Shown piece by piece: positions 1 through 49,412 of a DNA stretch of 52,545 nucleotides. Under the pieces are notes generated by a model that was not told the origin of the DNA, did not search any database, and saw only the letters and a list, made by a program, of their open reading frames with translations. This DNA is from an archaeon (lineage in GTDB: Archaea > Nanobdellota > Nanobdellia > Pacearchaeales > GW2011-AR1): assembly GCA_043810775.1 (NCBI GenBank), contig JBDRNU010000002.1, forward strand, positions 1 through 52,545, written 5' to 3'. The translations under genes were made by a program, and so were the position numbers. The first letter of the stretch is position 1. Each line of letters opens with the position of its first letter.

Positions 1-3000
1 CTATAAATCCAGTATCATAGTCATACGTACAAACAACATGAGACCACTCATTTTTAGCTGCAGGATTTAAATTAACAGGCCAAATATTTCTAACATCTCC
101 ACTTATATTATAAAACCCACAAGCAAGTTTTCCATTTCCACCAGCAATGCCATCCCCTCCCAAAAAATACCCACTTCTTGGTGTAGTACTATTAATTTTA
201 GAAACAATATGAAACCAGGAAGGTTGACTATCCAACTCAGTAAAAGGCTTTATCCAAACCTCAATGCTAAATGAACTTTTCAATCTTAATGAATTTGAGT
301 CGCTGAAATTAACAGAATCATCAACACCATCAAAACTTAATGCACTCGAATACTTTCCGCTTGCATTCCAGCTTGCCCCATTTATATTCCCATTATTTCC
401 ATATTTACTGCTATCAACAGCTTTAGTTGAATTATCCCCAATTTCAGTATTATTATCTAAATTCAAGTGCAAAACTAAACTGTCATCATAAAATGAATAA
501 TTAGTATAATTCCAAGTCCAGTTGTAAATTCCGAGCAAATCATATGAGTTTCTGTCAATATTTACCTTAAAGATTGCTTCAGTTAAATTAGTTTCAATGT
601 CAATTCCCGGAGTGGTGGCATTTACATCAGGAGGAATTATATCAAGCACTGTTATCCATAAAGTTTTTGAGTTTGAAGTGTAGTTTTCATTTCCAGAATA
701 AATTGTAGTTATATTTTTTAAGCCTGCAGATGAGTATGAAGTTAAATTCTCACTAGCTTTATTTCCAGAATAAATTAAACTCCCTCCAGAATAAACTTTA
801 AAATTCCCCACTCCTGAAGACAGATAAGCAGAGATATTTACTAATTCTCCTATTTTTTCTGTGAATCCTGACGCAGAACCATTTAGCAATAATATTATAT
901 TACCTGCAGCTTTAGTAATGTTTACAAGCAAAGCAGTTGAGTTGAGATTATTGGAAGTGTCATTAATAGTAATGTTAAGATAGTAATTGCCTACCCCTAT
1001 AGTAGTTGCGTTTTTAAGGTAGCCAGAACAGTTAATTGAAAACAATGAAGAATTAACCTTGAAGCAGCTTATATTTATATTATCTTTAGCAGTTATACTA
1101 TAAGCAAAAGGTGTTAGATACACTCTAGTTTGTGATGATGGAAGAGGTTCAAAATATGGTGGCTCTAAATCAGAATAAACTGTATTTAAAATTCTAGTTT
1201 CAGTGCAGTTTAAATTTCCAGAAACATCTGATGCACAAACCTGGTAGTAATGAGTTCCGTAGCTTAGATTGCTCTGATTGGAGTAAAATTCCCAGTAGCT
1301 TGAGTTGTATTTTTTCAAGTTGCTGGAGTAATGCTGCCAGACTTCTTGCGATGACAATCTTCTGTTGTAAATTCTTACTTCATCTATTCTTCCGTTGAAA
1401 AAATAAGCTGAAGCTCCAGTTGACGCTACTCCAGCACCAACAGATAAATTATTACTAGAAGAAGAATAACCTGAAATACCAGTTATAGTATTTTCTAAAT
1501 TACCATCAATATAAGATTTTATATTACTTCCATCAAAAGTAAAAATAAAATGATGCCACTTACTATCATTAATTATAGAATTACTATATACTCCATTTTT
1601 TGATGGAAGTACTAAACCTATTTTGGATTGATAAAATGGAGGTTCATTAATAGCAACATACCATCCAGCATTTAGTGTTGGGGAATATTTTCCAATTAGT
1701 ACATCATAACTATTAGATTCTGTATTAAACCATCCTTCTACACTAAATTTTGGCATTTTAAGAGAGCCAGAATCAAGAATTTTAACATAATCATTGACTC
1801 CATCAAAACTTAAAGCTGAACTATATTTTCCAGAAGAAGTCCATGAAGCTCCATTTAGAAAAGTGCCATTATTCCCATAATTAGAAACATCAACAGCTTT
1901 AGTTGAATTTTCTCCAATAGCAAGATTATTATCTAGATTTAAATGAAGCACTAAACTGTCATCATAAAATGAATAATTAGTATAATTCCAGCTCCAGTTT
2001 ATTTGGCTTATTGGAGGTGCTCCATGAATAATAGTTGCATTGATTTGAGCTGATTTGTTTGATGTTGTAAAATTATGCGGAGGAGTTGGATAGGTAAAAT
2101 TAACTTTAATTGGATTAATTGGAAAGCTTATATTTAACGAGTGAACTTCAGTGCATACTATATTCTCAATATTATTTGATATACAAGCTTGGTAAGTATA
2201 GTTTTGACCTAAAGCTAGGTTAGTCTGGTTTATGTAAAGATTCCAGTCTGTTGAGTTGTATTTTTTAAGCTGGCTGTTATAGAAATATTTAATATCTTCT
2301 GAGCTTAAAGCTCTTTTGAATATTACTACTTCATCAATTGTTCCATTCCAAGTGAAGGTAGGATTATACTGATTATATCCTATGGAGATATTTCTTTCAG
2401 ATGGATTATATGACCCACTAAATCCGGTAGAGGTTTGATACTCCCCATTTATCCATATTGCAACATCGGTCTTGTTAAAAACTCCTACAATGTGATTCCA
2501 GTTAGCTATATTTGGAACTACTACATTGCCACTTGAAATATAACCCGCCCCATTTCCGACAACAAAATAGCAGTTATTGCTCCAAAAACATCCTAACCAG
2601 TATCCTTCAGTATTACTTTCAGAAGCTCCGAAAATAGTGCTTAAAGCAAAATTAGGTTCTGAACTTGCTCCTTTTGATTTTGCCCAAGCCATTATAGTGA
2701 ATCCAGACATATCACTATATGCCTGCAAGTCTGGATTAGCTTGCAAGTCACCTAAATCAATTTTATCATTAATACCATCAAATTCAACCCCTAAGCCATA
2801 CTTGCCTTGTGTAAAAAAAGCACCGTCAAGTAAAGAGCCATTATTGCTGTAAAAGGAGTTATCAATTGCGCGATTGGAATTTTCACCTAAGTTAGGATTA
2901 TTATCTAGGTTCATATGTAAAACCAGATTATTTGCATTGTAAAACTGATGTACTGAATTATTAAAGTTGAAGTAAATAGAGTAAAGCTCTTTTGAAGAGC

Positions 3001-4312: not shown

Positions 4313-4428
4313 TACTTACATTGTAAGTATTGCAGTTTATATATCTTTCCACTATTACTTACATTGTAAGTATTTAAGCTTTTCCAGATTATACTTACAT
4401 TGTAAGTATTGCAGTTTATATATCTTTC
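4313..4428. promoter_or_regulatory. Three copies of palindrome TACTTACA-T-TGTAAGTA beside minus-strand BRE/TATA boxes (putative operators)
   Basis: Copies at 4313-4329, 4356-4372, 4392-4408; copies 1 and 3 share 37 identical bp including GAAAGATATATAAA on the minus strand. Confidence 0.7.
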
Positions 4429-10863: not shown

Positions 10864-10976
10864 ATATAAATTTAACCTGTATTTTGTCACTACAGGAAGG
10901 TAGCATAAATGTAACTACCATAAAGTTTATAAACAAAAATAACTGTGCTTGTATAATTAAAATTAAACTTTATAAA

Positions 10977-12200
10977 ATGAACCAAAAAGCAATTTTGGTT
11001 TCCTTGATTTCAGTGATGGCACTAGTTTATTTAACTAGTTTAGTAAGTGCTGGGTTGGTTTCAGGTGGCCTTGATGTTTCAGTTAATGGCATCGAAGTTA
11101 CTGAAGACGGTGTTACTACAATTGGCGCATTTGCTGGTGAGAATATACCTATCAGAGTAGTTTTTACTGCAGATGAAAACGCTGATGATGTCAGATTAAA
11201 AGCCTGGATCGGAGGCTATAGATCTGATGTTGAAGATGAAACATCTAGATTCAATACCATCTCAGGAAGTACTTACAGTAAGCTACTTTCTTTAGACTTA
11301 CCTGATGACTTAGATCCTGCAGAAGAATTTACTCTTTATTTAAGAGTAGAGTCAAAGACTCAAAGCCATGAAGAAAACTTTGACTTATTGATTCAAAGAG
11401 AATCATATGTCTTAGAAATTCTTTCAGCAGATTTATCTAGTTCTGTAACTGCCGGCGAAAGCGCCTATTTAGATATAGTGGTTAAGAACAGAGGATATGA
11501 AAGGCTTGACGATGTCTATGTAAAAGTTTCTTCAGAGGACTTAGGTATATCAAAGACAGCTTACTACGGAGATTTAACTGCAACAGATGATTGTGATGAC
11601 TGTGACAATGATGATGCACAGGAAAGGAGAATTTATTTCGATGTTCCTGCTAGTGCAGCTTCAGGTGCATACACTCTTAAAGTAGAAGCTTATACAGATG
11701 ATGTATCAACTTCTATGAACAAGAACTTGGTTGTTAGCGGGTCTGAGCAAAGGTCAGAAGTCTTAGTTCCTATATCATCTAAGGAAGTAGCAGTTAACGA
11801 TGAAGTTACATATGACTTGCTAATTATTAACAGAGGCAATGGACTTGCTGTTTACGAAGTAATTCCAGAATCTGTAAGTAATTTAATTGTCAGTGTAGAT
11901 TCTCCAATAGTGACTGTGCAAGGTGGAACAAGTCAGGTAGTTAAGGTAACTGTAAGGTCTGCAAATGTCCAAGGAAGCTACAGCTGGAACTTGAATGTTG
12001 AAAGTGACGGTGAATTAGTTGATGTAGTTACTCTACAAACTAAGGTAGTTTCAAGTACTGGATCAAGTGCAGGTGTTGACAGTATTGTAATCTTAACTAT
12101 AGTGCTGGTAATAGTATTCGTAGTACTATTAATAGTGCTGATAGTTTTACTTTCAAGGAAACCTAGAAAGGAAGAAGAATTCGGAGAAAGCTACTATTAA
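10977..12200 (+). CDS. Cell-surface/S-layer-like protein with Ig-like (CARDB-type) domains and C-terminal TM anchor
   Basis: Signal peptide from ATG 10977, VKNRG and IINRGN Ig motifs, acidic composition, C-terminal TM plus EEFGESYY tail. Confidence 0.7.
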   Translation: MNQKAILVSLISVMALVYLTSLVSAGLVSGGLDVSVNGIEVTEDGVTTIGAFAGENIPIRVVFTADENADDVRLKAWIGGYRSDVEDETSRFNTISGSTYSKLLSLDLPDDLDPAEEFTLYLRVESKTQSHEENFDLLIQRESYVLEILSADLSSSVTAGESAYLDIVVKNRGYERLDDVYVKVSSEDLGISKTAYYGDLTATDDCDDCDNDDAQERRIYFDVPASAASGAYTLKVEAYTDDVSTSMNKNLVVSGSEQRSEVLVPISSKEVAVNDEVTYDLLIINRGNGLAVYEVIPESVSNLIVSVDSPIVTVQGGTSQVVKVTVRSANVQGSYSWNLNVESDGELVDVVTLQTKVVSSTGSSAGVDSIVILTIVLVIVFVVLLIVLIVLLSRKPRKEEEFGESYY

Positions 12201-12201
12201 A

Positions 12202-12260
12202 ATTTTTTTATTTTTTTAGCTTTTTTCCATTTTTTTATTTTTATTTTTTTTATTTTTTTA
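12202..12260 (+). terminator. Oligo-T terminator tract
   Basis: Multiple T6-T8 runs immediately after the stop. Confidence 0.55.
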
Positions 12261-12282
12261 GCTTAAGATTTTCAGAAAGAAT

Positions 12283-12762
12283 ATGGTAAAAACAATAAAA
12301 AAATACCAGTGTGAGATATGCTCAGGAATATATAAAGAAGAAGATAGAGCTATAAACTGTGAGGGTGTAGGACAGCCAAAGATTCTTACTAAAGGGCAAG
12401 TTGTCTTTCTTGAAAATTCCAGTCCAACTGGCAAGAATAGATATTTAGATATTAGTGTTTTAGAGGGCCCTCAAGAAATTTTGCAAGAAACCCATGATGT
12501 TGTTTATCATACAAAAAGAGTTAGAGTATTTACACCAACAAATATATTAAAAGCAATACTCCTGGAAAGTTTCACATATGTTGGAGGGCTTGGAGGGATT
12601 ATTATAACAGATAAAGAAGGCACAGTAATTCCATCAGACAGAGAGAATATAGTGGAAAGAGCTGATATTCAACGAAAACTTGAAAAGCTTTGCCAAGATA
12701 GCTTATTTATAGGAGCTTGTGGAGAATCTGGTATTAGTGTTAGTGAAATTTTGAAAAGTTAA
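12283..12762 (+). CDS. Hypothetical protein, N-terminal CxxC
   Basis: YQCEICS...C. Confidence 0.55.
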   Translation: MVKTIKKYQCEICSGIYKEEDRAINCEGVGQPKILTKGQVVFLENSSPTGKNRYLDISVLEGPQEILQETHDVVYHTKRVRVFTPTNILKAILLESFTYVGGLGGIIITDKEGTVIPSDRENIVERADIQRKLEKLCQDSLFIGACGESGISVSEILKS

Positions 12763-12786
12763 TTTAAACTTAAGAGGATAATTAAA

Positions 12787-13245
12787 ATGGGATTTAAACC
12801 AGCAAAAGATGTATATGAATGTGATGCTTGTGGAAATATAGGTAGAAGAGAAGAAATAGCAAAGCACTTGGAATTGCCAGAGCCTGTAGTATTATCTCCA
12901 GGAAGTGTTTTTAGAACTAAAAATTATACTGATGCTGGTTCTGGTGAAAGAGAATATTATATTATTCAAAAAGGAAAGCCATTTATTAATATGGAACATA
13001 ATATAGAGTATCCTTCTCTTGTGCTAGGTGATAATCATCGTGGAATAGTTTTTTATTCTAAAGATGAGGAAAGAATTTTAGTTTCTGCAAATGGGGGTGA
13101 TATGATTATCCCAGGACTGGTAGTTGAGGTATTAAAAGAAGAAGGGATAAACCGTTTATGCAGAGCTAATGAAGAGTTTGCAGAGTTTTACGAATGGGCA
13201 ATAAACAGTGAAGGAATACGAACTAGTGATTTTGAAGAAGATTAA
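12787..13245 (+). CDS. Hypothetical protein, N-terminal CxxC (distant paralog of previous)
   Basis: YECDACG...H; similar layout (L..G.VF, H...Y). Confidence 0.55.
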   Translation: MGFKPAKDVYECDACGNIGRREEIAKHLELPEPVVLSPGSVFRTKNYTDAGSGEREYYIIQKGKPFINMEHNIEYPSLVLGDNHRGIVFYSKDEERILVSANGGDMIIPGLVVEVLKEEGINRLCRANEEFAEFYEWAINSEGIRTSDFEED

Positions 13246-13289
13246 ACTTCAAGACTTAAATTTATAAATTAGTATTTATCTTGATTCTT

Positions 13290-13721
13290 ATGGCAAAAGA
13301 AGATAATAATGGAATTTACTGGAGACTTGACAGGTATATTGAAATAATTAAAGCTGAAAATAAAAATTACTTGCAAAGAGCTAAAAAAACTCAAAAAAGC
13401 ATTAAAGCAATTCAGCCCAAGCATATTACGGAAGAGTTTACTTTACAAAGCGCGAAAAAACTTACGCTTGAGGATATTGCAATTGTTATATTTTCTGAAG
13501 AAGCTGCTGAGTTATTAATAAATGTTGCTACTAAATATATTCGAGAAATTGCCAGAAGAATTGAGGATAAATACGGGGAAAATATTCTTGGCGGTGACTA
13601 TTTAACAGCTAAAAGAGAAATTGCAAAAGATTACTTGCACGCACACAAAGGAATAGACTTATCCCCTTTTTATAAAGAGGCAATTGAGGTAGTTAAAAAA
13701 GGATGGGCAGAAAGCCCTTAA
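13290..13721 (+). CDS. Hypothetical protein flanked by exact 19-bp direct repeats
   Basis: ORF with own TATA; start reassigned to ATG 13290. Confidence 0.55.
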   Translation: MAKEDNNGIYWRLDRYIEIIKAENKNYLQRAKKTQKSIKAIQPKHITEEFTLQSAKKLTLEDIAIVIFSEEAAELLINVATKYIREIARRIEDKYGENILGGDYLTAKREIAKDYLHAHKGIDLSPFYKEAIEVVKKGWAESP

Positions 13722-16579
13722 ACTTCAAGACTTAAAATCTTGGAAATTCCGTCCTGCATGCTTATACCATAAAGAATATTTGATTCTGTTATTAGTATAT
13801 CATTATGGGTGACTATAATATACTGGCCTGTTTTCATGAACTTTTTTATCAGAGAAGCCAGCCTTTCTGAATTTCTCTTATCCAGGGCTGCATCAACTTC
13901 ATCAAAAATATAGAAAGAGTAGGGCTTGAACTCCTGAATTGCAAAAATAAGTGATAAAGCCACTAAAGTTTTCTCGCCTCCAGAAAGAGAGGTCACATCA
14001 AAATACTTGCCTTTTCCTAATTTAATGAGAATATCTAAACCTGCAGAAAAAGGCTCATCTTTGTTCTCGAGATTGAGAAAAGCTTCGCCTTTTGTGGAAA
14101 GCTGGAGGAAATTTCTAGTAAATAATTCATTTACAGAGTTTAGTGTTTTTAAGAAGGATTTCTTCTTTTTAGTGTCAATTTCCTGAATTATTTTGAGAAT
14201 TTCCTCTTTTTCAGTGTTAAGCCTGGCAACTTTTTCTGCTACTGAATCATACTCTTTTTTAATTTCATCATAAACTTCGAGAGCTCGAAGATTAACTGAA
14301 CCAATAACCTGGACAGAGTGCTCGGCTTTTTCCAGTTTTTCCTGGAGCTGTGATAAAGCCAGGGGGAGAATTTTCACCTGCCTAAAAGGCTCTAAATCAA
14401 CTTCAAGAGTTTCAATTTCTGCTGAAACTTTAGCCCGGCCAATTTTATCATTATTTATTGATTCATCTGAAACACTTAGCTTATGCTGAACTTCAAGAAG
14501 CTTTGAGTTTTCTTCATGTATATTTTTCTGAAGGTCGGTTCTCTCCTGAAATAGTTTTTTGAATCTTTCCTGCAACTGCTTTTCCTGTGCATCTTTTTTT
14601 ACAAGAGCTTTTTCATTTTGCTCAATTTCTGAAGAAAGAGATTTTACTTCAGACTCCAACTCAGACTCATCACGGAAAGTCTGCTTAACTATGAGCTTGA
14701 TTTTCTCCAAATCACGAATTTTAAATTCAAGCTCTGCATCTATATTTTTCTCGCTTCTAGAAGATATTTCCTCAACTTCAATTAATAATCTGTCATATCT
14801 TTCTTCAATATTCTTGTTCTTATGGTAATCCTTTTCAAGGAAATCCTTTTCCTTACTAAGTTCGGATATATCTTTATGAAGTATTTTTTCTTCATTTAGA
14901 AGCTTGGCAAGATGTTGTTTTCTGCTATTGATATTTCCAAGCTTGACCAGCTCAATATTTTTATCTGCAATTTCCTGCTTAATTAAATCAATTTTTCCAG
15001 ATAGCTCCTCAATGCTACTAGTGAGAGATTTGAGATTGTCTAAAGACTCACTAAGCTGTTTTTTGTTTTCTTTTATTTTAGCTTCAGAATCATCAAAAAC
15101 ATGCTTGATATGCTCTTGTGTTATTTTTGATTTGCAAAGAGGACAAATATCAATTTTTCCCACTTGTTTTTTAATTTTTTCCAAATTTAAAATTTCTGAT
15201 TCACAGACAGAGATTAATTTTTCCAATTCAGTTTTGGTTTGATGATTGCTGGAAAGATTAGCTGAAAGAGAGATTAGTTCTGCATTAAGCTTCTTTAGTT
15301 TTTCCCTGCAGGAATCTGGTGTTTTTTCCTTGGTTTGCAACTCTAGTGACTCAATTTCCTGCAAGGTAAAATCTGACTCATTTTTTGATTTTTGAATCTG
15401 TTTTTCCCTGTCTAGAATTCTTATTTTTATGGAGTCTAGTTTAGCTGAAAGGGAATAGAATTTTTTCCTGTCCAGCTCTGCCTGGTCTAGCTCGCGCCTC
15501 TTGCTTTCTAAGTCTTCTTGCTTTTTGGCTTGCAATCCTTTCTTTTTTAGTTCAGATATCTCTTTTTCAAAGTGCTTTATATCTTCAGAAAGAGCTTCTC
15601 TTCTTTCAAGTATCTCGGAAATTCTTGACTCCATATTCTCTTTCCTGACTGTCAAGCCGGCAAGTTCCTCGCGGAGCTCTGTTACCTGGTTATGAAGAGT
15701 TTCTTGCTCTAGGCCGGTTGACTTCTGGATAGAAGAATTAATCTGCTCAACTTTTTCTTCGTATGTTTGGATTAGCTTTTGTGTTTCCTGAATATGCGCT
15801 TTTATTTTGTCCTTTTGGGTTTGCTTTTTATCAATTTCTGATTCTATCCTAGAAAGGTCTTTTTTCTTGTCACCTATTTTTCTTGCAAGAATAGAAGCTT
15901 TATAACTTTGAATATTTTCCTCCAGCTGCTTAAACTTGAGGGCTTGCTTTCTTTCTTCTTCAAGGTTTCTGAGATAAGCTGTTCTTTCCCTGAGAATTGC
16001 CGATATTTCCTTTAGCTTTTCTTCTGTCTTACCAAGCTCTCTTAGAGACTTTTCTTTTCTTGACTCATATACTGATATTCCTGCAACTTCTTCCAGAATT
16101 TTTCTTCTTTCTTCAGAATTCATCTTCACTAGGTCCATGATTTCCCCCTGAAGAACTATATTAAAACCATAAGGGTCAATTCCAGCCTGCCCAAGCAGCT
16201 CGAGAACTTCCTGACGAGTTTTTATTACATTATTAATCTTATAGACACTCTGCCCATTAGTCTTGACTCTTCTTTCGACACTCACTTCCTGTTCAGCTAG
16301 AGAGAACTTTTTATCAGAATTATCAAAAATAATTTTTACAGAAGCTTCTTGAGAAGGCTTATGAGTTTTTGTGCCATTAAATATTAAATTAGCAGCTTTT
16401 GCTGCTCTCATTGACTTTATTGAAAGCCTGCCCAGAACAAAACATATGGCATCTGCTATGTTACTTTTGCCAGAGCCATTAGGCCCAACTATTACATTCA
16501 TGGAATTTGTAAAGGGGAGCTCTGTCTCTGAAGCAAATGACTTAAATCCTTTCATCACCAGTTTTTTCACATAAGGCAT
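13718..16579 (-). CDS. smc: SMC-family ATPase with central CxxC in place of a hinge
   Basis: GFKSF, GPNGSGKSN, LSGGEK, FDEVDAALD, VNLRA motifs; coiled coils; CPLC at aa ~479 of 953. Confidence 0.85.
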   Translation of the reverse strand: MPYVKKLVMKGFKSFASETELPFTNSMNVIVGPNGSGKSNIADAICFVLGRLSIKSMRAAKAANLIFNGTKTHKPSQEASVKIIFDNSDKKFSLAEQEVSVERRVKTNGQSVYKINNVIKTRQEVLELLGQAGIDPYGFNIVLQGEIMDLVKMNSEERRKILEEVAGISVYESRKEKSLRELGKTEEKLKEISAILRERTAYLRNLEEERKQALKFKQLEENIQSYKASILARKIGDKKKDLSRIESEIDKKQTQKDKIKAHIQETQKLIQTYEEKVEQINSSIQKSTGLEQETLHNQVTELREELAGLTVRKENMESRISEILERREALSEDIKHFEKEISELKKKGLQAKKQEDLESKRRELDQAELDRKKFYSLSAKLDSIKIRILDREKQIQKSKNESDFTLQEIESLELQTKEKTPDSCREKLKKLNAELISLSANLSSNHQTKTELEKLISVCESEILNLEKIKKQVGKIDICPLCKSKITQEHIKHVFDDSEAKIKENKKQLSESLDNLKSLTSSIEELSGKIDLIKQEIADKNIELVKLGNINSRKQHLAKLLNEEKILHKDISELSKEKDFLEKDYHKNKNIEERYDRLLIEVEEISSRSEKNIDAELEFKIRDLEKIKLIVKQTFRDESELESEVKSLSSEIEQNEKALVKKDAQEKQLQERFKKLFQERTDLQKNIHEENSKLLEVQHKLSVSDESINNDKIGRAKVSAEIETLEVDLEPFRQVKILPLALSQLQEKLEKAEHSVQVIGSVNLRALEVYDEIKKEYDSVAEKVARLNTEKEEILKIIQEIDTKKKKSFLKTLNSVNELFTRNFLQLSTKGEAFLNLENKDEPFSAGLDILIKLGKGKYFDVTSLSGGEKTLVALSLIFAIQEFKPYSFYIFDEVDAALDKRNSERLASLIKKFMKTGQYIIVTHNDILITESNILYGISMQDGISKILSLEV

Positions 16580-18733: not shown

Positions 18734-18847
18734 TTTTCTAATTGGTTCTTTTACAAAATTATTAAATTCCTTAATAGAATCAAACTTTGGAATAGTGAGA
18801 TAATAACTTTCATCACAATTAAATTCACAATTAGTCTCATTAATTAC

Positions 18848-19011
18848 GCTCAATCCCATTTACGCCCACCCCCACTCGCTTCCTCACTCGCTATCAAATT
18901 GGGAAAAATGTCTCGTGAGAAAGCTCGGGATTCACCCCATTCACTTTCAAAGTACTCTCTCCAAACTCCTGAGAGATGGGATTTCGTAAGCTCAATCCCA
19001 TTTACGCCCAC
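18848..19011. repeat. 22-bp exact direct repeat of tRNA-Ser 3' end and trailer flanking a 120-bp insert
   Basis: GCTCAATCCCATTTACGCCCAC at 18848-18869 and 18990-19011. Confidence 0.85.
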
Positions 19012-19086
19012 ACCAGGATTCGAACCTGGGAATCCGTGAGGAAACAAGATTAGCAATCTTGCGCCGTACCGCTGGGCCATGTGGGC
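19005..19086 (-). tRNA. tRNA-Ser(GCT)
   Basis: Cloverleaf, CAAGA-TTGCTAA-TCTTG, long variable arm, GGTTCGAATCC, G73. Confidence 0.93.
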
Positions 19087-19142
19087 TATAAAATTAGTAA
19101 GATTATAAGGTATTTTAAGCTTTTCTAAAGCCAAGATTTATA

Positions 19143-19237
19143 GTCAAGCTTTAGAAAAGCTTGGCAAAAGGCGAGACTAAAATCTCTGATGAGATTATTA
19201 CCTCACCACATTAACTTCCTGCATAGAGTTAGTTAAT
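19143..19237 (-). repeat. Three-hairpin element family 1, copy A
   Basis: Shares GCGAGACTAA...ATTACCTCACCACATTAACTTCCT..ATAGAGTTAGTTAAT with copy D and related sequence with copy C. Confidence 0.85.
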
Positions 19238-19283
19238 AGTTCATAATAGCTAAATTTATAAATAACTTTTCATATTTTCATTT

Positions 19284-22724: not shown

Positions 22725-22916
22725 ACCGAAAGCTTTAAATGATAAACCTTTAGGAGGTTTCCAACTGTCGTGCTTATCAGCACAACTTATTAACTTCCTG
22801 CATTGAGTTAGTTAATGGTTAAGCTTTCTACCGAAAGCTTTAAAATTCAAGCTTGTAAGCTTGGCAACAGCGAGCTTAACAGCTCACTAAAAAAGCTTTC
22901 TACCGAAAGCTTTAAA
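22725..22916. repeat. Three ACCGAAAGCTTTAAA repeats interleaved with family-1 copies B1 (22741-22816) and B2 (22847-22888)
   Basis: Repeats at 22725, 22830, 22902; B1 has ATTAACTTCCTGCATTGAGTTAGTTAAT; B2 has two of the three hairpins. Confidence 0.8.
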
Positions 22917-37977: not shown

Positions 37978-38664
37978 ATGAAAAAAGAAGTGATTTTAAT
38001 TTTAGGAATTTTGCTAATAAGCTTAGCAGTGACTTCTGTATATGCTCAGGGACAGGGCAATGATGACAGTAATGCCAATGACGGGCAAGGCAATCAGACT
38101 CAACAGCAAGACCAGAACCAGACTATGGCTCAAAATAAGACACAGGAAGGAAAAACTTCAAGTTTTTCACCTTGGCAGAAAAGAAGCGAGGATGAATGTC
38201 CTGAAGGATGCTCATGCCATGGAGCAGTTGTTTCTTGCAAAACTGAAAGTGGAAAGACAATGAGTATTGAAGCAGGAAGAAGTGGAAATTTGATTACTAT
38301 AACTATTGACAAAACTGAAGTAGATACTGAACTTGAGATTGAGACAGAATTGGGAGAAGGCAATCAAACAAAGCTAAAAGCCAAGATGAAGAACGGTGAG
38401 ACTAAAGAAGTTAAAGTGATGGGTGATGAAGCTCAAGTAAGGGTAAGAGAAAGAGCAAGAATTTGCGAAGGTGAAGGAAACTGCACAGTGAAGCTTCAGG
38501 AAATTAATGGCGAATTAATGTATGAGTTTGAAGGAAACAAAGAAGGCAGATTATTTGCTTTATTTAAGAAGCAGATGAAAATACAAGCCAGAATTGATGC
38601 AGAAACCGGAGAAGTCAGCAAGATTAAGAAGCCATGGTGGGCTTTATTAGCTAGTGAGTTGTAA
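37978..38664 (+). CDS. Secreted protein with Cys module and PepSY-like KKPWW C-terminus (paralog of 51559)
   Basis: Signal peptide, CPEGCSCHG, IDAETGEV..KKPWW. Confidence 0.7.
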   Translation: MKKEVILILGILLISLAVTSVYAQGQGNDDSNANDGQGNQTQQQDQNQTMAQNKTQEGKTSSFSPWQKRSEDECPEGCSCHGAVVSCKTESGKTMSIEAGRSGNLITITIDKTEVDTELEIETELGEGNQTKLKAKMKNGETKEVKVMGDEAQVRVRERARICEGEGNCTVKLQEINGELMYEFEGNKEGRLFALFKKQMKIQARIDAETGEVSKIKKPWWALLASEL

Positions 38665-38757
38665 ACCTTTTCCAAAGGTTTCCAAAGAGCAAGACTAAAT
38701 CTTACTAGTGTAAGATATTAGCTTACTGCATTAACTTCCTACCTAGAGTTAGTTAAT
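38661..38757 (-). repeat. Three-hairpin element family 1, copy C
   Basis: Aligns with copies A and D with compensatory changes. Confidence 0.85.
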
Positions 38758-48856: not shown

Positions 48857-48929
48857 GCCTCAATAGCTCAGCTGGTAGAGCAACGCTCCCGTAAAGCGTG
48901 GGTCGCAGGTTCAAATCCTGCTTGAGGCT
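48857..48929 (+). tRNA. tRNA-Thr(CGT)
   Basis: GCCTCAA/TTGAGGC acceptor, ACGCT-CCCGTAA-AGCGT, GGTTCAAATCC. Confidence 0.9.
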
Positions 48930-48930
48930 T

Positions 48931-49027
48931 GCTAACCTTTAAAAAAGGTTACCAAACAGCGAGACTAAATCTTACTGATGTAAGATATTACCTCACCACA
49001 TTAACTTCCTTCATAGAGTTAGTTAAT
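48931..49027 (-). repeat. Three-hairpin element family 1, copy D, within a 15-bp duplication of the tRNA-Thr 3' end
   Basis: TTGAGGCTTGCTAAC at 48922-48936 and 49045-49059. Confidence 0.85.
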
Positions 49028-49061
49028 GATCAGTCAAGTAGGATTTGAGGCTTGCTAACTC

Positions 49062-49412
49062 TTATTCTGAATCATAATTAAAAGGAGTTTGAAAGTGCTG
49101 GGGCAAGACATCTTGGTATTTTTTCTGGATTCTTTCAAAAATTTCACCATACTTTGCTAAGTCTTCTTCATTGAAAAAAGAGGCAGTTCCAATTCTAAAT
49201 AAGAATATTGCAAGAGCATGATGTGAAGGCCGAAACTCTTTTTTCTCAAGCTTAAATAGATAATCACTTAGCTGCCTCCTCAATAGCTCGTGATATCTTT
49301 CAGGAATAGGGATATCAAGCTGTTTAAGGAGAAGAATCTGGTGAGCTATGCTTGGATTGCTACCATCATTACAAATCTGGTCGTATAAATCACAAGCTTC
49401 TTCTAAATCCAT
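49062..49412 (-). CDS. Hypothetical protein
   Basis: 116-aa ORF with TATA. Confidence 0.5.
   Translation of the reverse strand: MDLEEACDLYDQICNDGSNPSIAHQILLLKQLDIPIPERYHELLRRQLSDYLFKLEKKEFRPSHHALAIFLFRIGTASFFNEEDLAKYGEIFERIQKKYQDVLPQHFQTPFNYDSE

Follow-up and report, generated by a model that had tools for sequence, protein, structure and literature searches.

Among described mobile elements, insertion sequences of the IS1634 and IS1549 type are reported to duplicate 8-514 bp of their target, with no mechanistic model for this (PMC2266710). In archaea, a casposon has been described with a 15-bp target duplication beside the 3' end of a tRNA-Pro gene (PMC5137440). We looked at an arrangement that resembles both in the DNA of an archaeon of the order Pacearchaeales (assembly GCA_043810775.1, contig JBDRNU010000002.1, positions 1 to 52,545). 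This stretch of 52,545 nucleotides, hereafter the window, is contig C2 of the genome that we call G000, and G001 is the only other genome of the same genus, that of a sister species. In the window, the last 19 nucleotides of a gene for an SMC-like ATPase occur twice, as copies A and B, and bracket a single small open reading frame (ORF), ORF3, which follows ORF1 and ORF2 in a slot between the SMC gene and an S-layer-like gene (Table 1). We put at about even the chance that a single insertion, in which a long stretch of target was duplicated, left this pair behind; an as yet unnamed enzyme would have made it, and the copies would have been homogenised later in G000.

By analogy, we take the IS1634/IS1549 group as the closest documented precedent. 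Like these insertion sequences (PMC2266710), the loci described here carry long, target-derived direct repeats that vary in length. Unlike them, with their 1.5-2 kb, terminal inverted repeats and a DDE transposase, the inserts here are of 457 bp and of about 90 nt, and no inverted termini were seen by eye in either (no formal inverted-repeat search was made). The casposon is likewise an archaeal insertion next to a gene 3' end with a long target duplication (PMC5137440). Casposons are however large, have inverted ends, carry Cas1 and a family B polymerase and give a nearly fixed duplication of 14-15 bp, whereas here no Cas1 was found in the 80%-complete genome, the insert measures 457 bp and the duplications span 15-45 nt. 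Integron cassettes are single-gene units stacked at one place, as are ORF1 to ORF3, and the original prediction had likened the locus to an integron without attC or an integrase. The comparison does not hold: we found no attC-like element, attI or adjacent IntI, ORF1 and ORF2 look like paralogues, and the repeats are target-derived and site-specific. Cassettes of integrons are promoterless and all point one way; ORF1 to ORF3 have the same orientation, and ORF3 has a TATA-like box that would be its own promoter. Diversity-generating retroelements combine a reverse transcriptase with a variable and a template repeat at the 3' end of a gene, a pair of tens to more than 100 nt that differs at adenines; here the two 19-nt copies are identical and no RVT_1 match was found in G000 or G001. 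For these archaea, a limited literature search returned no printed description of target duplications that are long and vary in length.

The 19-mer TTAAACTTCAAGACTTAAA is exact (19/19) at copies A and B on the plus strand and, as had been predicted, is the SMC terminus: its minus-strand reading encodes the last six codons with the stop (..L S L E V stop). No third match was found in the window allowing up to three mismatches, nor in the whole 995,483-base assembly allowing up to two, and none of 100 shuffled controls held two matches. The 19-mer is not palindromic, and no inverted copy lies in the window within three mismatches. As the 60 nt flanking the two copies are only 27-30% alike, the pair is isolated and not a piece of a longer duplication. 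The repeat at this locus is real and non-random. The TAA at its positions 2-4 is the stop of both ORF2 and ORF3, and the stop of ORF3 overlaps that of SMC by three bases (13719-13720 plus 13718). That each interval holds one orphan ORF and that two ORFs take their stop from the repeat was also borne out, neither ORF2 nor ORF3 having relatives outside the genus in the databases searched (Pfam, PHROGs, NCBIfam, 5.8e9 proteins and 1.84e9 cluster representatives). The 457 bp between the copies (13261-13717) have nothing similar elsewhere in the window or after copy B (blastn, tblastx), and an origin of ORF3 by tandem duplication of the SMC 3' region was rejected on this ground. A decayed third copy, TTAAACTT-AAGA, had been proposed at 12764-12775 (+). 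It is present in the sequence, but because 461 places in 1.99 Mb (both strands) match the 19-mer equally well or better (score 10; about 0.35 expected per 1.5-kb gap), it is no better than chance and was rejected as a repeat copy. A narrower pattern, TTAAACTT.?AAGA, has seven genome-wide hits, three of them at this locus; it was devised post hoc and is not relied on.

The SMC protein is present in 30 of 31 related genomes. In the SMC loci of 11 relatives, the S-layer-like gene was matched in nine; in G010 it lies upstream of SMC on the same strand, and in G006 and G012 it lies beyond the reach of the search or of the contig. We extracted the gap between the two genes from eight relatives and from G000. 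The two genes converge in all eight relatives, about 0.55 to 1.8 kb apart, and what lies between them changes from genus to genus: two genera have a methyltransferase-like gene on the opposite strand, and the others have small unrelated ORFs. When metagenome contigs were scanned with a DNA pattern of the SMC end, at least 115 stretches matched; among the matches listed, one is an SMC terminus (contig L074), where a single unrelated 100-aa gene abuts the SMC stop. This comparison supports the view that the slot next to SMC is a hotspot for accessory genes across the family.

The content of the slot in G000 is shared by G001 alone. There, the order is S-layer-like gene, three genes of the ORF1/ORF2 family, copy A, a TATA-like box, an ORF3 ortholog, copy B and SMC. 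The ORF3 ortholog is in the same place, is 49% identical, and its stop again overlaps that of SMC. The inner copy of G001 is TTAAACTTCTAGACTTAAA, while the outer copy TTAAACTTCTAAAATAAA has decayed (12 exact bases, 16/19 with one gap). The SMC C-terminus, ..KILSLEV, is identical in G000, G001 and L074, and its DNA is closely similar in G001, G018, G014 and L074; in the last three it is unduplicated. Among the gap sequences of the nine genomes examined, a second copy of the terminus occurs only in G000 and G001 (2/9), the two with ORF3, indicating that bracket and ORF3 occur together and that the bracket is older than the species split. Since ORF3 and the bracket are common to both, ORF3 is not a recent arrival, which argues against the predicted polar order with the newest gene nearest SMC. 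Copy B is the native one.

The two copies have not changed independently. Within the repeat, the codon for Leu reads TTA in G018, G014 and L074, CTA in G001 and CTT in G000. The outer copy of G001 retains the outgroup A at position 12, while that of G000 has both derived synonymous states of the G000 SMC terminus and is otherwise unchanged. Of 64 four-fold degenerate sites in the last 227 SMC codons, 36 differ between G000 and G001, so that a free 19-mer would neither have stayed identical nor have followed two substitutions. As both derived states are in the outer copy of G000, it was remade or converted from the inner copy after the split. On these codon comparisons, re-synchronisation of the G000 outer copy after the species split is shown; the route may have been gene conversion between the copies, or loss of the cassette and its re-insertion.

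The insertion that we favour would have taken the following course. Before the event, an ORF2-like gene and SMC would have been convergent, sharing TTAA as overlapping stops. The 457-bp unit, with its TATA box and a leaderless ORF3, would have been placed exactly at this shared TTAA, the insertion itself duplicating at least 19 bp of the target. Because the target is duplicated on insertion, the neighbouring genes would stay intact: SMC would keep its last six codons and its neighbour its stop, and ORF3 would take its stop from the inner copy. The insertion would be older than the split of the two known species of the genus. Staggered cuts or nicks with fill-in, or replicative template switching with microhomology, are candidate routes, and both fit. 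One gene inserted at the SMC stop with target duplication, in a slot that is a hotspot, is the part of the original prediction that gives the best reading of the repeat. Its serial capture of single genes is not supported, as ORF1 and ORF2 look like tandem paralogues (the family has three copies in G001) and the third copy is at chance level; ORF1 and ORF2 would most likely have arisen by tandem duplication, not by separate captures. The SMC event could be one case of a lineage-wide process that leaves variable, site-specific target duplications of 15-45 nt around a small hairpin element of about 90 nt and around gene-sized inserts, mostly at gene ends, in which case element- and gene-sized events would share a mechanism.

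Exact local direct repeats with a spacing of 100-3000 were compared with those of order-3 Markov genomes. G000 holds 11 repeats of exactly 19 nt where 0.2 are expected, and 95 of at least 19 nt where 0.4 are expected, most of the latter inside paralogous genes. A boundary set was defined by flanks less than 45% alike, absence of low complexity and both copies at gene ends or between genes. There are 21 isolated boundary repeats of at least 16 nt in G000 and 19 in G001, against a mean of 4.9 at any position in ten simulated G000 genomes, an enrichment in line with the original prediction. Junctions of a paralogue array on contig C11, promoter- or operator-like motifs and short tandem motifs were set aside as probably not scars. 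No core or palindrome is shared among repeats at different sites, their sequences being site-specific. Brackets had also been predicted elsewhere in the window: they exist (48922/49045, 18845/18987 and 22725/22902), but flank the hairpin element or tRNA ends, not ORFs, and the gene-sized ones lie on other contigs and in G001. Alleles without the insert were found between the sister genomes at such loci. At the C3 70074/71277 junction, G001 has a different gene and lacks the repeat. At the site of the bracketed 300-aa gene of G001 (contig C19), the flanking genes in G000 are 4 nt apart with one copy; two outgroup loci lack the recombinase neighbour, and the difference may be an insertion in G001 or a precise loss in G000. 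On G001 contig C39 (4106/4721), one convergent gene is flanked by a perfect 31-nt pair that equals the last eight codons of a minus-strand gene, and a TATA-like box follows the outer copy. Its G000 counterpart is an orthologous gene (86% identity) beside the end of the 23S rRNA gene, with the repeats decayed.

The small element is a family of sequences of 80-100 nt with three hairpins (fold z-score -3.55), a conserved 5' part and a variable 3' hairpin in which pairing is kept. It has no match in Rfam. In total, nhmmer found 17 copies across G000 and G001, four of them in the window, and several adjoin tRNA genes. Seven of the 17 have exact, site-specific flanking direct repeats of 15-43 nt, while none of 400 control positions had one of at least 13 nt. 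In the window, a repeat of about 20 nt (48922-48941 / 49045-49064) brackets one copy and includes the 3' end of tRNA-Thr 48857-48929(+). Empty sites are reciprocal: two insertions on G000 contig C26 are absent from G001 C19, which has a single target copy, and one insertion of G001, whose 21-nt duplication spans a gene junction, is missing in G000. At the 5' junction, 5-7 nt are common to element and target. In its 17 copies, target duplications, empty sites and 5-7 nt of 5' microhomology, the element resembles a miniature inverted-repeat transposable element (MITE) or a short interspersed nuclear element (SINE). It differs from MITEs in lacking inverted ends of their type and their short fixed duplications, and from SINEs in that variable duplications there depend on a reverse transcriptase, of which neither G000 nor G001 gave a match. 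The direct repeats made from the target and the empty sites in relatives by which DDE- and MITE-type insertion is recognised were found at these other loci.

Several observations weigh against the insertion that we favour. No terminal inverted repeats were seen by eye in the insert, and no transposase, reverse transcriptase or Cas1 was found (four families, 80%-complete genome). Within the genus, no empty allele turned up at the SMC locus; only outgroup genera lack the duplicate, and no homolog of ORF3 was found elsewhere that would speak for its mobility. The empty sites at other loci are unpolarised, and precise deletion between the repeats would look alike (two outgroups). The gene bracketed on C39 is ancestral at its site in both species; as it is old there and its bracket is nevertheless perfect, perfect identity does not date an insertion. 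The outer copy of G001 is only two to three changes from the inferred ancestral 19-mer, below the neutral rate, which leaves room for some constraint. Finally, a palindromic AATCATCTGATT occurs three times on G001 contig C6, and some short boundary repeats are probably regulatory motifs.

A wider reading is possible, and we hold it tentatively: an undescribed pathway would insert the hairpin element and promoter-bearing single genes at gene ends, duplicating 15-45 nt each time. This pathway would use none of the transposase, reverse transcriptase or Cas1 families tested and would need no attachment site, and the repeats might later recombine, keep each other identical and let cassettes leave and re-enter. 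The enzymes bear on this. RVT_1, Cas_Cas1, Y1_Tnp and DDE_Tnp_1 gave no matches in G000 (80% complete; these four families only), and RVT_1 is absent from G001 too. The inventory of enzymes proposed at the outset yielded two tyrosine recombinases, of the Phage_integrase family, on G000 contigs C6 and C26, conserved in both species, and neither Cas1 nor a reverse transcriptase in G000. No recombinase lies between 8000 and 18000 of the window. As a separate observation, RVT_1 is found in 28 of 81 sampled genomes of the family, often in two to three copies.

A doubtful alternative, which makes the predicted integron-like process concrete, is that ORF3 cycles as a cassette. With one repeat it would be excised as a 476-bp circle and return to the SMC terminus, whether in the cell that it left or in a related one, by homology over 19-31 nt or through a tyrosine recombinase in trans, and such cycles would keep the copies matched to the SMC terminus. 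This would explain the concerted change in G000 and the perfect 31-nt pair around an old gene on C39; the insert is neatly one gene with its own putative promoter, and the two Phage_integrase-family genes are conserved in both genomes. It leaves the origin of the first duplication unexplained, however. The repeats differ wholly between sites and have no core or palindrome in common, in contrast to attC/attI or att cores. In addition, an inverted copy of the 19-mer was not found, the recombinases are far from the locus and ORF3 was found nowhere else.

That selection keeps the copies alike seems unlikely. The 19-mer would then be functional, as a protein-binding site or in pairing at the 3' ends of the SMC and ORF2 mRNAs, and not mainly a scar. 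Both copies changed together in G000, the outer copy of G001 has changed less than four-fold sites, copy A abuts the TATA box of ORF3 and could be an upstream promoter element, and some other boundary repeats resemble operator motifs. Such a function accords poorly with the presence of just two copies genome-wide, neither palindromic nor with an inverted partner, and with an outer copy free to decay in G001 (12 exact bases, three changes in the rest). Moreover, a second copy is missing from relatives whose SMC gene has the same terminus, and SMC coding fully accounts for the inner copy.

Elements that carry an integrase typically insert at the 3' ends of genes and duplicate the terminus there. 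The locus is like islands of this kind in that the repeat includes the end of a target gene that stays intact, in a hotspot between conserved genes; they have their own att core and an integrase aboard, whereas here the repeats differ per site and bracket a single gene without a recombinase. We consider it improbable that the bracket is the remnant of a larger integrative element, a plasmid or virus for which the 3' end of SMC served as attachment site, which brought a replacement terminus and of which all but ORF3 was later deleted. A 37-nt pair does flank a 3-kb block of five genes on G000 contig C11, and in the ESM Atlas small 'transposase family' clusters match ORF3 with a feature score of 0.93, but have just 131-134 features in common with it, which is a lead only. 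This lead was not reproduced in Pfam, PHROGs or NCBIfam, and the insert is exactly promoter and ORF in both species, with no spare sequence and no integrase fragment. Chance similarity or an assembly artefact is hardly credible: short AT-rich matches are common in a genome of 33% G+C, but none of the shuffles held two matches, 0.2 repeats of 19 nt are expected genome-wide, the independently assembled G001 has the same architecture, and exact contigs from public runs bridge copy A.

Table 1. Features of the SMC locus, copies of the three-hairpin element and gene-sized brackets in G000 and G001. Window coordinates are those of G000 contig C2; paired numbers separated by a slash are the positions of the two repeat copies.
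Feature	Sequence	Coordinates	Strand	Remarks
S-layer/Ig-like membrane protein gene	window	10884..12200	+	conserved left anchor of the variable slot
ORF1, 159 aa	window	12283..12762	+	N-terminal CxxC, then beta-rich body
ORF2, 152 aa	window	12787..13245	+	stop TAA (13243-13245) inside copy A
Repeat copy A	window	13242..13260	+	outer, non-coding copy of the SMC terminus
TATA-box-like element TTTATAAA	window	13261..13268	+	22 nt upstream of the ORF3 ATG; read from sequence
ORF3, 143 aa	window	13290..13721	+	bracketed single-gene insert; stop inside copy B
Hairpin GGGC-TTTCT-GCCC, then T6	window	13695..13717	-	directly after the SMC stop, within the coding end of ORF3
Repeat copy B	window	13718..13736	+	native end of SMC (six final codons plus stop)
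SMC-like ATPase gene, 953 aa	window	13718..16579	-	conserved right anchor
Hairpin element	window	38661-38757	-	
Hairpin element	window	19137-19243	-	
Hairpin element	window	48934-49033	-	
Hairpin element	window	22741-22825	-	
Hairpin element	G000 C26	7150-7237		
Hairpin element	G000 C26	9972-10071		
Hairpin element	G000 C26	46394-46491		
Hairpin element	G000 C16	1183-1282		
Hairpin element	G001 C19	9170-9300		
Bracket, 19 nt	G000 C3	70074/71277		both genes end MKKEV-stop; repeat holds the ribosome-binding site of the next gene
Bracket, 24 nt	G000 C6	9253/10155		both genes end EF-stop
Bracket, 25 nt	G000 C22	14885/15578		around a gene 89% DNA-identical to that of G001
Bracket, 26 nt	G000 C25	83839/84947		around a two-gene module, in an island absent from G001
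Bracket, 18 nt	G000 C3	18055/18621		
Bracket, 37 nt	G000 C11	34928/37899		around five genes (3-kb block)
Bracket, 20 nt	G001 C19	272/1282		300-aa gene inside; repeat matches the opening 20 nt of the downstream gene

The three small ORFs of the slot have no family in Pfam, PHROGs or NCBIfam. ORF1, ORF2 and the three tandem genes of G001 share eight invariant columns, with C..C and G.VF motifs, at 19-26% identity in a five-row alignment, and ORF1 and ORF2 match each other by BLASTP with E 0.016. The two are likely tandem paralogues, of weak similarity, in a family restricted to the genus. A profile search with this family recovered only its own members, and a word-index search among 5.8e9 proteins returned only ORF2 itself for ORF2. 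The AlphaFold2 model of ORF1 has a mean predicted local distance difference test (pLDDT) of 58.9. ORF3 was also considered as a paralogue of ORF1 and ORF2 and rejected (BLASTP E 1.1). It is predicted to be all-helical, with low confidence (AlphaFold2 pLDDT 40), and neither model is good enough for comparison of folds. Its profile matched two proteins among 1.84e9 cluster representatives, both from members of the genus; the word-index search returned the query itself only, alignment against metagenome and genome contigs gave no match, and four matches in 301 genomes of the order (E 0.003-0.008) were taken as noise. Like the lead for ORF3, the other ESM Atlas leads were not reproduced in Pfam, PHROGs or NCBIfam. 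General archaeal spacing of the TATA box and B recognition element (BRE) is the basis on which TTTATAAA is proposed as a putative promoter element of ORF3; the box is kept in G001 as AAATTTATAAAT, and its distance from the ATG would imply a leaderless mRNA. The hairpin after the SMC stop looks like a terminator of SMC, and at the matching site G001 has a T5 run.

The SMC gene matches SMC_N over residues 3-946 (E 2.7e-56), its best solved relative is the Smc chain 5xei (E 3.4e-107), and it scores 536 bits against TIGR02169, under the cut-off of 729. No Pfam match to SMC_hinge was found in it. By these matches, 13718-16579 encodes true SMC heads, with ABC-type head halves at the N and C termini and long coiled coils between them, and is hinge-less. 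At exact mid-length, a CP[LV]C motif is found in 10/10 SMC orthologs from 10 genera, here as CPLC at about residue 479. This motif, in the place of the hinge, resembles the zinc hook of Rad50. In the literature searched there is an engineered swap of hook for hinge, and no natural case was found for these archaea. On the other side of the slot, the S-layer-like gene matches HYDIN_VesB_CFA65-like_Ig of Pfam (E 2e-6) and, weakly and under the cut-off, the NCBIfam PACE-CTERM putative S-layer protein; its true start is likely the ATG about 30 codons in (MNQKAIL..).

The assembly of G000 has 995,483 bases in 26 contigs, 33% G+C, and is 80% complete. Public runs that contain parts of the window are labelled groundwater metagenomes, with no RNA run listed among them, and in four of them the organism appears only as short contigs at a depth of 2-4. 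Copy A is bridged by exact contigs of such runs (13210-13407 and 13079-13310), while copy B is not bridged with 31 letters on both sides. The joint of 13241 to 13737, in which ORF3 would be skipped, was not seen for this strain, which at 2-4x depth carries no weight. Matches to a joint of 12207 to 13745 are uninformative, as the shorter side is of 30 letters, the records are of 80% likeness and extra letters between the sides are possible.

Further observations concern the surroundings of other repeats. The gene bracketed on C22 is NYN/LabA-like; with about 100 nt upstream (G000 C22 14937-15583 versus G001 C20 18053-18699) it is 89% identical in DNA, while its neighbours are only about 70% identical in protein between the species, which suggests recent transfer or unusual constraint. 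On C25, an island of about 3.4 kb (82130-85482) is not in G001. To judge by the N-terminal sequences alone, its genes form a RelE/AbrB-like pair and a second, two-gene module, possibly HEPN- and nucleotidyltransferase-like, which is the one bracketed by the 26-nt repeat. A nine-gene tandem array on the minus strand lies at G000 C11 9959-16321, each gene of about 200-270 aa, and its junctions share up to 72 nt encoding a conserved N-terminal sequence like a signal peptide. Three tandem copies of a 37-nt unit with the palindrome TACTTACATTGTAAGTA are found at 4313-4428 of the window, with a similar motif in synteny at G001 C30 647-757; the unit looks like a putative protein-binding site. A 28-nt repeat (93% alike) is found at 18845-18872 and 18987-19014, 142 nt apart, and its second copy overlaps the 3' end of tRNA-Ser 19005-19086(-), which makes it one more duplication of a gene end.

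The most interesting outcome lies outside the slot on which the original prediction centred, in the long-duplication brackets and the hairpin element with their empty sites in the sister species. Should the cases prove unrelated, the SMC bracket would be an ordinary old insertion scar kept tidy by gene conversion. Archaea with small genomes have many lineage-specific genes, and here the sites of arrival are legible at base resolution. If one process makes them all, genes would be added to a compact genome without breaking its packed or overlapping neighbours, and other genomes could be searched for its concrete sequence signature.

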